Virus record (IMG/VR): IMGVR_UViG_2547132278_000008
Coordinates: 1-12,292 of that record
DNA from: a virus
Lineage: Duplodnaviria > Heunggongvirae > Uroviricota > Caudoviricetes
DNA length: 12,292 nt
Reading direction: 5' to 3' (one strand)
In this document: one piece after another, positions 2,933 to 12,292 of the stretch
Layout: every line of letters begins with the position of its first letter
Position numbering within the stretch: the first letter of the stretch is position 1
Program-made: the position numbers and the translations under genes
The notes under the pieces: generated by a model
Database searches by the model: none
The model's input: the letters and a program-made list of their open reading frames with translations, nothing else
What the model was told of the DNA's origin: nothing

Positions 2933-3514
2933 TAGATAAGTACAAACTATTCATAAAGTGAATTGTAAGTGCTAAGATCTGATAGTTTCCAGTCGTAGAC
3001 TGGAGACTCGACCTGATGGGTGGGGGTAAGCGTCACTGGCGTCAGGTTTAAAAAAGCTCACTACCAGCGTAGAACTGGTGCCGTTTAGGTGTCGGGGAAG
3101 GGGGAACCAAAGTGAGCAGAGACAAGGGTCACTTTATGATTGTCGAGTCTGGGGTGTTTCGAGAGGTTGAATCCAGTACTCCCCTTCATAAAGTGTGGGA
3201 AGATCTCGGTTCTGGGGTGCTGTCATCCATAACTTCCCAAGTCTAAGCTGGCAGTAGACTTAGACCATAACTTTTCAGGTTATGAAACGACCAGGTTGGT
3301 GAGAGATTTTTATACTCACCTCCCTGGGAGAGTATTACCTGAAAAGACAACCTCTCACTTCGTTCGAGGTGAACTTCACTCACTTCGTTCGTTCAGTTCA
3401 GGTTTATAAAAACCTGTTCTGGGAAGTAATTTGTTTATTTTAATAATTATTAACACGCACGCGTGTGCGCACGCGCGAGGAAAAATCGGCGCGGCGCTTG
3501 ATTCAGGAGTTTAT
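2933..3514. other. ORF-free, repeat-rich and hairpin-rich intergenic region; candidate structured ncRNA, origin or regulatory hub
   Basis: No ORF of 60 aa or more on either strand. Hairpins include CCAGTC gta GACTGG (2989-3003), GGTGAG...CTCACC (3298-3320) and AGGTTT ataa AAACCT (3401-3416). Direct repeats include TCTGGGGTG at 3138-3146 and 3211-3219, and CACTTCGTTCG at 3356-3366 and 3381-3391. Confidence 0.3.
3453..3477. repeat. 25-nt perfectly alternating purine-pyrimidine tract (Z-DNA-prone) with central CACGCGTG palindrome
   Basis: ACACGCACGCGTGTGCGCACGCGCG read directly; lies about 40 bp upstream of the RNase HI start codon. Confidence 0.9.
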
Positions 3515-4105
3515 ATGACGACGAAGACACCAGCCCGATCGCAAGCAAAAACTCGCAAAAAAGACAAAAACAAAAATTCTCCCCGCACCAATCCCACAAC
3601 GCCTGTCGTAGAGTTCAATCCCCAGCTTAAAACCGTGAAAATCTTTAGTGATGGCTCTTGCCTTAAAAATCCGGGTGGCCCGGGCGGTTACGGTATCGTT
3701 CTCCAGTATCGTGGTGAGGAACGCGAGTTCTCAGATGGTTTTCATAGCACCACCAATAACCGCATGGAGATGATGGGGGCACTTATCGGGCTGGAGCGTT
3801 TGAAATATCCATGCAACGTTATTTTGCACTCTGATAGCCAGTATCTGAAAAACGGCATGACACAGTGGATGAAATGGTGGAAACGCAATGGATGGATGAC
3901 TTCTGACAAAAAACCGGTAAAGAATGTTGATCTGTGGAAGCGTCTGGATGAGGCCGCAAGTCGACATAATGTTCGCTGGAAGTGGGTTAAAGGTCACGCC
4001 GGGCATCGTGAAAATGAAATATGTGATCGACTCGCGAAGATCGCAGCTTTTTCAGCAGCAGATATGCCTCACAAGAAAGATATTGGTTTTGTTTATAACA
4101 AATAG
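3515..4105 (+). CDS. Ribonuclease HI paralog (196 aa) with a ~45-aa basic N-terminal extension
   Basis: AGGAG at 3505-3509 precedes ATG 3515. The core aligns by eye to E. coli RNase HI with all catalytic residues present: IFSDGSC (D), NNRMEMMGA (E), HSDSQY (D), [18 protein letters not shown] (H, D). The extension is Lys/Arg/Pro/Thr-rich. Confidence 0.85.
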
Positions 4106-4202
4106 TAAGTAAGTGTTTACCTATCATTTTAAATCATGTATCTTATCGGCGTCAGGATGACAATGTGTCGGTAAGACACAGTTCCAGGATGGAACGAGAA
4201 AG

Positions 4203-4224
4203 GCGGCTGGCAATCGCCAGCCGC
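4203..4224 (+). terminator. GC-rich hairpin (possible terminator or 5'UTR structure)
   Basis: GCGGCTGGC aatc GCCAGCCGC forms a 9-bp stem; the downstream tail CTCTTTCT is only weakly U-rich. Confidence 0.35.
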
Positions 4225-4253
4225 AACTCTTTCTGACACTGGATGGAGTCCAC

Positions 4254-4748
4254 ATGGCACGTCAAACCTATTTCACTTCTGTAACTAAACGTCCTCGTTC
4301 TTTACGTCAAATTTTGGCCGAATTATTTAGCGGTCGTGTTATGTCACGTCTTGATGAACTAGAGACTACCGTTCGGTTGCTGAATGAACGTTTAGATAAT
4401 CAAGCGTCAGTTGTTGCGAACGTGGGGGCGATTGTTGCCTCTGGTTCTTCACGCGAAGCGAAAAGTACACGGCCTTTAGTGAAGGAGAAAAACAACAAGG
4501 ACAGTTCGAATGGAAAATTTTCAAAGAAAGAGGCTGAAACCAATGGCCTACGTTCTCATTATAGTTTCACTGGCGACGGTAGCCGTTCCAGCCGGCCAGA
4601 GCCTTTTGATGCCGGGTTCATCCATCACCACACCTCCGTCGACGACAATTACCACCACTCCAGTAGAGCGTCCTGTCACTCTGGATGGGATGACGGTGGA
4701 TGCGATACCTCAAGTTCATCCGGTTACTCAGGATCATGCTGTGACTAA
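4254..4748 (+). CDS. Hypothetical protein; N-terminal ~85 aa look coding, C-terminal part is doubtful (overlapped by a +1 frame ORF)
   Basis: GGAG at 4245-4248 precedes ATG 4254. The N-terminus is coiled-coil-like, but after about residue 90 the translation becomes Ser/His/Cys/Gly-rich low complexity. Confidence 0.35.
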   Translation: MARQTYFTSVTKRPRSLRQILAELFSGRVMSRLDELETTVRLLNERLDNQASVVANVGAIVASGSSREAKSTRPLVKEKNNKDSSNGKFSKKEAETNGLRSHYSFTGDGSRSSRPEPFDAGFIHHHTSVDDNYHHSSRASCHSGWDDGGCDTSSSSGYSGSCCD

Positions 4749-4761
4749 GGCGGTTGTATGA
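4510..4761 (+). CDS. Small putative secreted or membrane-anchored Thr/Pro-rich protein (83 aa)
   Basis: AAGGA at 4496-4500 precedes ATG 4510. It has a signal-peptide-like N-terminus (MENFQRKRLKPMAYVLIIVSLATVAVPAGQS) and a TTPPSTTITTTP tract, and its stop overlaps the next start as ATGA. Confidence 0.4.
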   Translation: MENFQRKRLKPMAYVLIIVSLATVAVPAGQSLLMPGSSITTPPSTTITTTPVERPVTLDGMTVDAIPQVHPVTQDHAVTKAVV

Positions 4762-4946
4762 ACTGGTTTTCAAATCACTTTGGAAAAATTTGGCTGGCAA
4801 TTCTTGCCCTCATGGCCGCCGGTTGGGTATCGAACATTATAAAACTTGTTTGCTCTGGCGATCTCCAGTTTCAGGCTGGCATGACCTTGGCTCGTGTAGT
4901 TGGGATTTTTGTTTTTCCAGTCGGTTCGGTACTTGGTTATTTCTGA
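4758..4946 (+). CDS. Small membrane protein (62 aa, two predicted transmembrane helices)
   Basis: ATG 4758 overlaps the preceding stop (ATGA). Hydrophobic segments IWLAILALMAAGWV and VVGIFVFPVGSVLGYF. Confidence 0.45.
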   Translation: MNWFSNHFGKIWLAILALMAAGWVSNIIKLVCSGDLQFQAGMTLARVVGIFVFPVGSVLGYF

Positions 4947-5001
4947 CGGCTGTTAGTGCATATGCATTGACCATCTTTGCGTAAGCAATTTATGTAATTA
5001 G

Positions 5002-5039: not shown

Positions 5040-5465
5040 ATGTTAGGTTTCTTCAAAAAGAAAACTCGTAAAGCTGTTATCGAAGTCAAAAAAATGGAGA
5101 ACCGTGATGCGGTTGAGGCCACCGTGTGGGGCGCGTACATGATCTCCTATGCCGACGGCACATGTGACGCAAAAGAAATTGCCATTCTTGAGAAGACAAT
5201 TGCAGCTCTGCCTGCGTTTTCTCCGTTTGCTGGTGAAATTGCCCAAATGAGCGCCAATATCCGTGCTCGTTACGAAGCGTCCCCTCGTTCTGCTAATGCA
5301 CAGGCTATTCGTGAGCTGTCTGATATTGCGGGTACTCCAGAGGCGGTCGATGTTCTGTGTCTGTGCCTTGATATTGCCGATCAGGACGGCATTGGTGAAC
5401 AAGAAGAGCAGGCACTGAAAAAGATCGCCCAGGCGCTTCAGTTGTCACTGGATGCTTATCTCTAA
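5040..5465 (+). CDS. TerB-like (tellurite-resistance TerB family) protein, 141 aa
   Basis: AAGGA at 5029-5033 precedes ATG 5040. Two TerB-type repeats with acidic Asp-Gly motifs (ISYADGTCDAKEIAILEK and CLDIADQDGIGEQEEQALKKI) match the TerB architecture from memory. Confidence 0.7.
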   Translation: MLGFFKKKTRKAVIEVKKMENRDAVEATVWGAYMISYADGTCDAKEIAILEKTIAALPAFSPFAGEIAQMSANIRARYEASPRSANAQAIRELSDIAGTPEAVDVLCLCLDIADQDGIGEQEEQALKKIAQALQLSLDAYL

Positions 5466-5623
5466 TGCTTGAGAGATTCCGGCTTGTGATCGTCATTGCT
5501 CTTCTGGTGATGGCGGTGTTGGTGGATTTTACGGGAAAGATGATGTCTGTCATTTCTGATGGCGTCCTCATTGGTTTGGCGATCTACTTCGCTTATCCGT
5601 TAGTTCGTAAAGCAAAGTGTTAA
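5465..5623 (+). CDS. Unannotated small membrane protein (52 aa), translationally coupled to the TerB-like gene
   Basis: TAATG stop/start overlap at 5463-5467. Hand translation gives MLERFRLVIVIALLVMAVLVDFTGKMMSVISDGVLIGLAIYFAYPLVRKAKC with two hydrophobic segments. It is below the 60-aa threshold of the ORF track. Confidence 0.5.
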   Translation: MLERFRLVIVIALLVMAVLVDFTGKMMSVISDGVLIGLAIYFAYPLVRKAKC

Positions 5624-9941: not shown

Positions 9942-10405
9942 GCAAGATTGACTATCAGGCACTGCGTGAAAAGGCAGAGAAAGCAACGTGTGGTAAGTGG
10001 TCGCTCGAATATGGAGAGAGCCGATTTGATGGTGATGATGCGCTAATTCATCGTGAAGTTGCTGGATATATTCCTATTTGCAGAATTGAAGGAGCGCATC
10101 CTGAAAGCGGTTTCGATGAAGATTTCCAGATGGAACAGCAGGCCAATGCTGAATTCATCGCCGCAGCCAGTCCAGCTACCGTGCTGGCACTACTGGATGA
10201 GATCAACGCATTAGAGGAAACGCGTATCAACGATGTTTGCCGTATTGCGGAACTAACAAAACAACTGGAGTTGGCAAAATCAAAACTCAACGAGCAGCGT
10301 GAGTATTACGAGGGCGTTATCTCGGATGGAAGTAAGCGCATAGCCGCTCTTCTTCGCAAGGACAATCTTGCCAGCGCCACGAACATTGAAGGTGAAAGAA
10401 AATGA
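9938..10405 (+). CDS. Ead/Ea22-like phage protein (155 aa)
   Basis: GTG start with AAGGAG at 9925-9930; GTGA overlap with the upstream stop. The N-terminal [18 protein letters not shown] and later [23 protein letters not shown] resemble lambdoid Ea22-like proteins from memory. Confidence 0.6.
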
Positions 10406-10725
10406 CCACATCGCACTCTGCTATTACCCAAGAAAAAGCCTTCAACATACTCGAACGACTAGAGACGCTCGCTACGGAGGAGGATATATCCCCGGAGAAA
10501 CTGGTTGAGTTCAGCCGTGTGATATTGCGTCGCAAGAACGATATGGAGCGGCTGACATCTGGCGCTCCATCCTTATCAGTCAGGCGAACACTTTGTTGCA
10601 GCTTCTGCAACAAATCCCAGTACGCCGTCAAAAAGTTAATTGCTGGGGACGCCGTTTTCATCTGCGACGAGTGTGTGGATGTGTGCAACAGAATTATCCG
10701 GGGAGAGAAAGAGGGATCAGCATGA
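10402..10725 (+). CDS. Small protein with a C-terminal ClpX-type C4 zinc-finger domain (107 aa)
   Basis: ATGA overlap at 10402-10405. [35 protein letters not shown] aligns closely to the ClpX N-terminal zinc-binding domain ([34 protein letters not shown]). Confidence 0.65.
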
Positions 10726-11434: not shown

Positions 11435-11940
11435 TGACCACCGTTAACAATAAGAAATGCTACCCAAGCGAGAAATATCTTAATGAGCTGATCACCAACA
11501 TTGAGTTTGCTGCAAGGGCACCAGTTGAAGTCGTGAGAGCGATTGCAGCAGAGCTACAGAAGCACCGTAAGGCCTATGCCAATACAGCCGCATCTAAGGA
11601 TGGTTGGATAAGCTGTAGTGAGCGAATGCCTGTAATTGGCGAGCTAAATTGGAGAACTAGTTTTCCTTTACTGGTTATGTGTGAGATCGGCGTTATACCT
11701 GCTTATTACGGCTTTGTGAGCGTTAATGGTGATAGGCATTATGGCTTTATGGAGAGTCTTAAATACGGAGACGATAACGGCAACCATCCTCAAACTAATG
11801 AATATGGTCTGATTAGCAATGTCACACACTGGATGCCACTACCAGAACGCCGCAGGAGTCGAACAGTGAATAATGCAGAGTTATTTCAGAAAATATGTAA
11901 GCGTCAACGGAGCACCGTATTGACGCTTATTTATTGGTGA
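11434..11940 (+). CDS. DUF551-like phage protein; last ~14 codons and stop are supplied by the inserted IS66 terminus (3'-disrupted)
   Basis: TAATG overlap at 11432-11436. GWISCSERMP and THWMPLPE motifs are typical of DUF551 from memory. The IS-like terminus begins at 11897, inside the ORF. Confidence 0.55.
   Translation: MTTVNNKKCYPSEKYLNELITNIEFAARAPVEVVRAIAAELQKHRKAYANTAASKDGWISCSERMPVIGELNWRTSFPLLVMCEIGVIPAYYGFVSVNGDRHYGFMESLKYGDDNGNHPQTNEYGLISNVTHWMPLPERRRSRTVNNAELFQKICKRQRSTVLTLIYW
11897..11929. repeat. Terminal inverted repeat of the IS66-family element (starts GTAAGCG), containing an internal 9-bp palindrome
   Basis: GTAAGCGTCAACGGAGCACCGTATTGACGCTTA; IS66-family ends typically begin 5'-GTAA. 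Internal arms AAGCGTCAA and TTGACGCTT. Confidence 0.55.
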
Positions 11941-12292
11941 GTACTACGTTCCATGGCAGGAGTTCGTCAACACGGTTGGAGGGCCATTCCGGCAGTACGC
12001 TCAGAATATGGCGCAGATACGCTTCCGGATCGATACCGTTCAGTCGGCAGGTGCCGATCAGCCCGTACAGCAGTGCTCCACGCTCGCCGCCGTGATCGCT
12101 ACCGAAGAACACGTAATTTTTCTTTCCGAGACAGACTGCACGAAGCGCTCTTTCCGCTGTGTTATTGTCCACCTCCGCCAGACCGTCATCACTGTAATAA
12201 CAGAGGGCGTCCCACTGATTCAGTACATAGCTGAACGCTTCGCCCAGTCTGGATTTTTTCGACAGCGTGCCATTCTTCTCCACCATCCATTC
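11927..12292 (-). CDS. IS66-family transposase (TnpC-like), C-terminal part; 5' end outside window
   Basis: The - strand translation ...NNTAERALRAVCLGKKNYVFFGSDHGGERGALLYGLIGTCRLNGIDPEAYLRHILSVLPEWPSNRVDELLPWNVVLTNK matches the conserved IS66 transposase C-terminus from memory. Confidence 0.8.
   Translation of the reverse strand, partial: EWMVEKNGTLSKKSRLGEAFSYVLNQWDALCYYSDDGLAEVDNNTAERALRAVCLGKKNYVFFGSDHGGERGALLYGLIGTCRLNGIDPEAYLRHILSVLPEWPSNRVDELLPWNVVLTNK

Follow-up and report, generated by a model that had tools for sequence, protein, structure and literature searches.

Origin of the window and gene organization of the locus

The stretch of DNA analysed here (12,292 nt; hereafter, the window) is, judged from its matches to plasmids and to phages SSU5 and Cyrano, a piece of a phage-plasmid of the SSU5/pHCM2 type. 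A 1-kb stretch around the gene overlap described below matched 447 plasmid records in a megablast search, and a 761-base core (4200–4960) matched 680 plasmid records in a more sensitive search. The matching plasmids, nearly all of which are non-mobilizable and ~110 kb in size, were from Escherichia, Klebsiella, Salmonella, Enterobacter, Citrobacter, and Cronobacter, and the phage matches to the same stretch were Salmonella phage SSU5 and Escherichia phage Cyrano. The local gene order is exonuclease, Dam methylase, RNase H, three small ORFs (A, B, and C), a TerB-family TciA-like gene, a DUF3927 TciB-like gene, and a DUF4942 methylase. The ORFs and associated signals are as follows.

4245–4248, plus strand: Shine-Dalgarno sequence GGAG of ORF A, 5 nt 5' of the ATG; GGA is kept in most lineages
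4254–4748, plus strand: ORF A, 164 aa, annotated by PGAP as 'hypothetical protein' in relatives; matches phrog_10411 (E = 2e-78)
4497–4501, plus strand: Shine-Dalgarno sequence AAGGA of ORF B, 8 nt 5' of the ATG at 4510
4510–4761, plus strand: ORF B, 83 aa, in the +1 frame of ORF A, with a conserved start codon; matches phrog_15659 (E = 1e-48)
4510–4748, plus strand: 239-nt stretch read in two frames, as judged from the B-frame dS, the open-frame probability, and the A-frame identity
4747–4750, plus strand: Shine-Dalgarno sequence AAGG of ORF C, overlapping the TAA of ORF A (4746–4748); GACTRAGG is conserved in C-carrying lineages
4758–4761, plus strand: conserved ATGA overlap of the ORF B stop and the ORF C start
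4758–4946, plus strand: ORF C, 62 aa, with two hydrophobic segments; matches phrog_6006 (E = 2e-25)
5040–5465, plus strand: TerB-family TciA-like gene (Pfam TerB)
5465–5623, plus strand: DUF3927 TciB-like gene (Pfam DUF3927)

Among the seven lineages checked, a TerB-family gene is located close 3' of A/B(/C) in five, including two that lack ORF C (L079 and L083); in the SSU5-type and L085-type loci, no TerB-family gene was found just downstream.

Several other features of the window were recorded. The RNase H gene (3431–4105) carries a frameshifted or partial annotation in some RefSeq records (e.g. NZ_CP014490.1), and its start differs among records, giving lengths of 591–765 nt. A 107-aa ORF with a ClpX-type C4 zinc finger (PF06689, E = 1e-15) is present at 10402–10725, in an Ea22/Eaa-like accessory region of the phage-plasmid. 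On the minus strand, the ORF at 11927–12286 corresponds to the C-terminal portion of a transposase of the IS66 family (Pfam DDE_Tnp_IS66 and IS66_C). Although this 119-aa ORF is listed as complete, it starts from an internal ATG, matches the Pfam model at its C-terminal end only, and resembles a fragment of a transposase located where the window ends. An IS66 element likewise adjoins the region in the Citrobacter plasmid pRHBSTW-00524_2.

Conservation of the two overlapping ORFs

The first-pass annotation had regarded the change from the frame opened at 4254 to that opened at 4510 as reflecting a frameshifted gene for a bitopic membrane protein, a programmed frameshift, or nested genes, and had suggested a comparison of orthologous loci. 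That comparison favours nested genes, as two conserved genes with independent starts were found and no continuous ORF apart from rare variants. In total, 87 loci were fetched and the region could be anchored in 81 of them, originating from Escherichia coli, Salmonella, Klebsiella, Cronobacter, Citrobacter, Kluyvera, Buttiauxella, and metagenomes. Both ORFs, each with its own start, are intact and have identical geometry in 79 of the 81 loci: ORF B begins 256 nt into ORF A and extends beyond the stop codon of ORF A by 13 nt, or by 10 nt in one lineage. The two exceptions (L054 and L074) are single frame-shifted, derived variants. The layout is retained in seven deep lineages, namely the E. coli type, SSU5, Cronobacter, Klebsiella, L085, L083, and L079, which share about 25–60% amino acid identity (mean pairwise identity, about 40–49%).

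A continuous ORF was absent among the orthologues except in a few rare variants (L054, L074, P0012–14, P0017, and P0023), whose appearance suggests indel mutations or errors of assembly. That one gene was split in the present sequence by a frameshift mutation or a sequencing error has only the appearance of a frame switch in its favour, and is refuted by the occurrence of the same architecture in nearly all anchored loci from many genera and metagenomes; we assign it a negligible probability. The frameshifted gene for a bitopic membrane protein envisaged earlier is likewise refuted by the presence of two ORFs, each with its own start, in all seven deep lineages.

A programmed +1 frameshift near 4510–4545, which would join the helix of protein A to the hydrophobic segment and tail of protein B and thereby yield a single-pass membrane protein, is consistent with the +1 relation of the frames, with the short A and T runs at 4514–4521, and with a few A-to-B fusion proteins in the protein database. 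However, the homopolymer runs around 4515–4535 that had been named as plausible slip sites consist of A4, T4, and A3 only, and they are not conserved: the run AAAATTTT at 4514–4521 is replaced by GATCAATTTC or GATCAATTT in Klebsiella and by GAAAAATAT in L079, and in L085 the T run is broken by a Tyr codon in place of Phe at residue 4 of ORF B (MENYQ). No slippery sequence is thus conserved at the frame junction among these lineages. Neither a stop codon nor a rare codon was found in the zero (A) frame at the proposed shift site, and this frame remains open for 79 further codons beyond the junction, to a conserved stop. ORF B also possesses its own conserved Shine-Dalgarno sequence and start codon. 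As for the fusion proteins, their join positions vary and they occur as singletons or in small clusters, as would be expected of indel mutations or assembly errors. A programmed frameshift is therefore considered very improbable, although slightly less so than a split gene.

When a profile was searched against 1.8 billion representative proteins, 21 hits were returned, all of which were of the same locus type. No relative with A and without B was present among them, and an ancestral non-overlapping state was not found in this set. An ORF on the minus strand, antisense to the locus, was also considered and dismissed, as it extends over 131 aa in SSU5 but only 34 aa in L006.

Predicted products of ORFs A, B, and C

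The first ~85 residues of the 4254 frame had been described as coding-like and followed by low-complexity sequence, and the predicted features of protein A agree with this description. The N-terminus carries a basic motif (KRPRS), followed by a long helix at residues ~17–66, and residues 86–164 are of low complexity, with 17 Ser, 10 Gly, 8 Asp, and 7 His among 79 residues. In the AlphaFold2 models of A and B, both of which are of low confidence outside one helix each, the pLDDT values are 70–86 for the helix of A and <50 for its tail. The tail is predicted to be disordered, is rich in Ser, Gly, Asp, His, and Cys, and terminates in CCD. The stop codon of ORF A is homologous in the seven lineages, with the frame open up to it. 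The terminal CD is invariant (7/7 lineages), and the motif SGW(D/N) is found in six of the seven, with SGGD in the most distant relative, P0057. The best 19-residue hydropathy window of protein A has a mean of 0.79 and lies at residues 47–65, i.e. it is not N-terminal.

Two further observations concern ORF A. In the Cronobacter lineage (L056–L062; 2490–2990), the +1 frame is open over the whole of A, forming a 166-aa ORF whose ATG is 11 nt 5' of the start of A; this ORF is probably due to chance, as it is confined to one lineage and an open frame of this kind has P ~0.03 given the N-terminal protein of A. In addition, L004, P0008, and P0015 are recombinant mosaics, in which the N-terminal half of A is of the SSU5 type and the overlap is of the E. 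coli type, indicating recombination breakpoints within gene A near the start of the overlap.

The proposal that the +1 frame from 4510 encodes a signal-peptide-like segment and a Thr/Pro-rich tail was borne out by the composition of protein B. Its n-region (MENFQRKRLKP) has a net charge of +3 over 11 residues and precedes a 15-residue hydrophobic core (residues 12–26; MAYVLIIVSLATVAV; mean Kyte–Doolittle value, 2.5), which is followed by P-A|G, such that residues 1–28 resemble a signal peptide by inspection. Thr, Ser, and Pro together account for 42% of the tail. AlphaFold2 predicts a helix only at residues 11–23, and a conserved LDGMxxDxIP motif is present. These features suggest that the N-terminus of B serves as a Sec-type signal peptide or a membrane anchor. 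Cysteine is absent from protein B in four of the seven lineages (the window, SSU5, Cronobacter, and L085).

The translation start of ORF B is well conserved. A purine-rich Shine-Dalgarno sequence (AAGGA, AGGGA, GGAGAG, or GGAAGG) lies 7–9 nt 5' of the start in all lineages, and the start codon is GTG in L079 but ATG in each of the 54 unique sequences that made up the first set. The phrog_15659 model begins at Met12 of B; since conservation of this residue does not extend to L079 or L083, the start at 4510, upstream of it, is the real one, and the model is probably truncated at its N-terminus.

ORF C is predicted to encode a small membrane protein. Its connection to the +1 ORF through ATGA, together with the two hydrophobic segments of the 62-aa product, had been noticed in the first-pass annotation and is confirmed here: among the 54 unique sequences, the B/C overlap is ATGA in 46 and GTGA in eight, and an ATGA/GTGA junction is kept wherever C is present. 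On this basis, translation of C may be coupled to that of B. ORF C is absent from L079 and L083, in which both the A/B overlap and the homologous end of A are still found; the B/C junction is thus, as far as these lineages tell, not essential to the A/B overlap. Relatives of C occur on their own in phages of Aeromonas, Vibrio, and Octadecabacter. ORF C shares the frame of ORF A, from which it is separated by the TAA and three sense codons (GGC GGT TGT) with conserved spacing (4746–4760), so that a hypothetical read-through of the stop of A would give an A–C fusion.

Selective constraint on the 239-nt overlap

In the overlap, the third frame contains 4–9 stop codons in each lineage. The probability that the A frame would remain open was estimated by fixing the B protein of each lineage and resampling synonymous codons. 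The probabilities obtained for the seven lineages were 0.057, 0.040, 0.021, 0.017, 0.090, 0.026, and 0.010, and their product is 2e-11 (2e-7 with uniform codon usage), a value that is overstated because of shared ancestry; with four effectively independent lineages, the product is still ~1e-4 to 1e-6.

Codon-position divergence among the seven lineages was 0.36/0.31/0.53 in the B frame, the usual coding pattern, and 0.49/0.39/0.38 for the same bases in the A frame, i.e. the pattern follows B and not A. The B-frame dS was 0.43 (bootstrap interval, 0.32–0.56) vs. 0.81 (0.65–1.01) in the N-terminal part of A and 1.07 (0.88–1.27) in C; the intervals of the overlap and the flanks do not overlap and the B value is about half of both flank values, although recombination mosaics could distort such rate comparisons between regions. 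At sites that are synonymous in A and nonsynonymous in B, dSN was 0.24, compared with the same flank dS values. Codon identity at conserved residues was 0.63 vs. 0.47 and 0.33, in six of six comparisons among the first four lineages. The rates imply an omega of ~0.2–0.3 for B and 0.4–0.5 for the tail of A.

To obtain a B-only null, sequences were simulated with the B proteins fixed, A-frame stops forbidden, and synonymous sites kept at the flank-calibrated rate. The observed amino acid identity in the A frame was 0.373, compared with 0.288 under this null, and 19 of the 21 lineage pairs were above it. An OLGenie-style dNN/dSN of 0.95 (0.64–1.39) would imply no selection on A, but this ratio was given little weight because a phantom +1 frame in the non-overlapping part of A, used as a control, gave a dNN/dNS of 0.66 where 1 is expected, indicating a bias; the flank-calibrated dS, the open-frame probabilities, and the simulation were relied on instead. 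On these estimates, constraint in the overlap is stronger on B, which is under clear purifying selection, than on the A frame, whose additional constraint is weak to moderate. Both frames of the overlap are thus coding by these measures, to different degrees.

These results bear on two alternatives in which the tail of A has no role as a protein. In one, functional sequence is limited to B and the first ~85 residues of A, beyond which the A frame would be a meaningless extension, free of stops because the Thr/Pro codons of B rarely create them. The codon-position pattern of the overlap, the dNN/dSN near 0.95, and the disordered, low-complexity nature of the tail would all suit such an extension. 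However, even with the composition of B, the frame has a probability of only 0.01–0.09 per lineage of being open, yet it is open in all seven; the halved synonymous rate of B relative to both flanks, the excess of A-frame identity over the null, and the conserved stop position and terminal CD also argue against it. We therefore judge it unlikely.

In the other alternative, the A frame would be kept open merely to carry ribosomes through the overlap, either to feed C or to modulate the initiation of B or the mRNA structure, and the identity of the tail residues would be irrelevant. The position of the stop of A, inside the Shine-Dalgarno sequence of C and 9 nt before its ATG, is suggestive in this regard, as is the weak amino acid-level constraint on the tail. 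Against this, A extends to its homologous end in the two lineages without C, the avoidance of stops concerns about a dozen codons and cannot halve dS, and the null that is exceeded by the observed identity is itself stop-avoiding. This explanation appears somewhat less probable still than a meaningless extension.

Candidate promoter and leader RNA upstream of ORF A

The following features were identified between the RNase H gene and ORF A.

4116–4144, plus strand: candidate sigma-70 promoter, with a -35 hexamer TTTACC (4116–4121), a 17-nt spacer, and a -10 hexamer TATCTT (4139–4144), recognized from the sequence
4151–4237, plus strand: structured leader RNA of ~87 nt with a four-way junction (minimum-free-energy folds and RNAalifold)
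4151–4157/4231–4237, plus strand: closing stem of the leader (minimum-free-energy folds and RNAalifold)
4164–4180, 4181–4195, and 4203–4224, plus strand: leader hairpins P2, P3, and P4, respectively (minimum-free-energy folds)

The hexamers of this putative promoter are conserved in 10 lineage representatives; it was not called by a consensus scanner. The leader is found once per locus, directly 5' of A, in every locus. Independent minimum-free-energy folds of nine lineages yielded the same architecture, and RNAalifold recovered the closing stem, P2, and P3, with eight pairs changed on both sides. Compensatory changes were seen in all three hairpins, of which P4 was called terminator-like. The leader matched no Rfam family, and scanning the whole window yielded neither Rfam nor tRNA hits. 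The leader could act as a 5'-UTR stabilizer or an attenuator.

Proposed expression and role of the A/B pair

Taken as a whole, the comparative data indicate that A and B are a real overlapping gene pair and not the product of a frameshift or a sequencing error. We consider it likely that A/B represents a conserved overprinted (dual-coding) pair of SSU5-type phage-plasmids, in which each protein is translated from its own start. The candidate promoter and the structured ~90-nt leader just 5' of A precede the three genes. Ribosomes starting at 4254 would produce protein A, presumably cytoplasmic and composed of a long N-terminal helix plus an acidic, disordered tail in which Ser, Gly, His, and Cys are abundant, and those entering independently at the internal Shine-Dalgarno sequence and ATG at 4510 would produce protein B. 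In the latter, a Sec-type signal peptide or a membrane anchor is predicted to place the Thr/Pro-rich chain that follows it in the periplasm. Ribosomes that terminate B at the TGA (4759–4761) may restart on the overlapping ATG of C. The production of both A and B, and the export and topology of B, are deduced here from sequence features.

Regarding their role, our guess is a cell-envelope-directed accessory function alongside the TerB/TciA–TciB genes, because these genes lie just downstream in the window and in most of the lineages (5/7). In an RNA-seq study of an LF82 lysogen, CYRAN_83 and CYRAN_84, the Cyrano equivalents of A and C, were not among the prophage genes reported as expressed (PMC9928086). 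This hints weakly that expression is more likely to be lytic or early than to occur in lysogeny. A broader and more speculative interpretation, which we hold to be possible though rather doubtful, is that A, B, C, and the four-way-junction leader constitute an undescribed envelope-directed module acting with TerB/TciA–TciB, in which both products of the overlap are needed and the leader represents a new class of cis-regulatory RNA. Were this true, the module might serve, for example, in superinfection exclusion or in the control of membrane stress, with A as a cytoplasmic protein whose His/Cys/Asp-rich tail may bind metal and B as an exported Thr/Pro-rich peptide.

Clinical E. coli, Klebsiella, Salmonella, and Enterobacter commonly carry phage-plasmids of the SSU5/pHCM2 type. 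In every record inspected, the NCBI pipeline (PGAP) has called A and C and left out B, and most annotations consequently lack a conserved gene for a predicted exported protein. The locus is also a clean natural case of long same-strand dual coding in which constraint is measurable in both frames, which makes it useful for testing methods of overlapping-gene detection; had only the OLGenie-style ratio been used, the A frame would have gone undetected. The practical importance of the locus is modest for now.

Comparison with known systems

Sequence searches of Pfam, NCBIfam, PADLOC, and PDB with A, B, and C gave nothing significant, and a description of the A/B gene pair was not found in the literature. 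Family matches of the three proteins were to PHROGs of unknown function only, which means that all three have already been called as genes in some phage genomes.

The closest downstream neighbours in gene order belong to a module resembling TciA/TciB (TerB, DUF3927) of P1. A, B, and C share no sequence relationship with that module, and the link comes from gene order only. They are similar to it in being small, envelope-associated (by prediction) proteins of phage-plasmids, and the module adjoins the locus on its downstream side in the window and in five of the seven lineages checked.

Two-component spanins (Rz/Rz1 and P2 LysB/LysC) offer a second point of comparison, since they likewise combine a +1-frame overlap with a helical or coiled-coil partner and a Pro/Thr-rich exported partner (the export of B being predicted). 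Unlike spanins, however, A has no N-terminal membrane segment and B no lipobox cysteine, and the locus is positioned between RNase H and TerB, in a replication and nucleotide-metabolism region (its neighbours being RNase H, Dam, TerB, DUF3927, and nucleotide-metabolism genes) and not in a lysis cassette. Assignment as a two-component spanin was accordingly rejected on these three defining features, although the +1 overlap is shared.

Overprinted same-strand gene pairs with independent initiation are known in phages, e.g. lambda Rz/Rz1 and phiX174 D/E and A/B/K. The A/B pair differs from these in that B overruns the stop of A by 13 nt, and is thus overlapped and not fully embedded, in that it is apparently coupled to a third gene, and in that the family is confined to SSU5-type phage-plasmids among the representative proteins searched. 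As in the known pairs, the second ORF lies in the +1 frame with its own Shine-Dalgarno sequence and start codon, both frames are conserved among relatives, and the product of the internal frame is Pro/Thr-rich and, in the case of B by prediction, targeted to the envelope.
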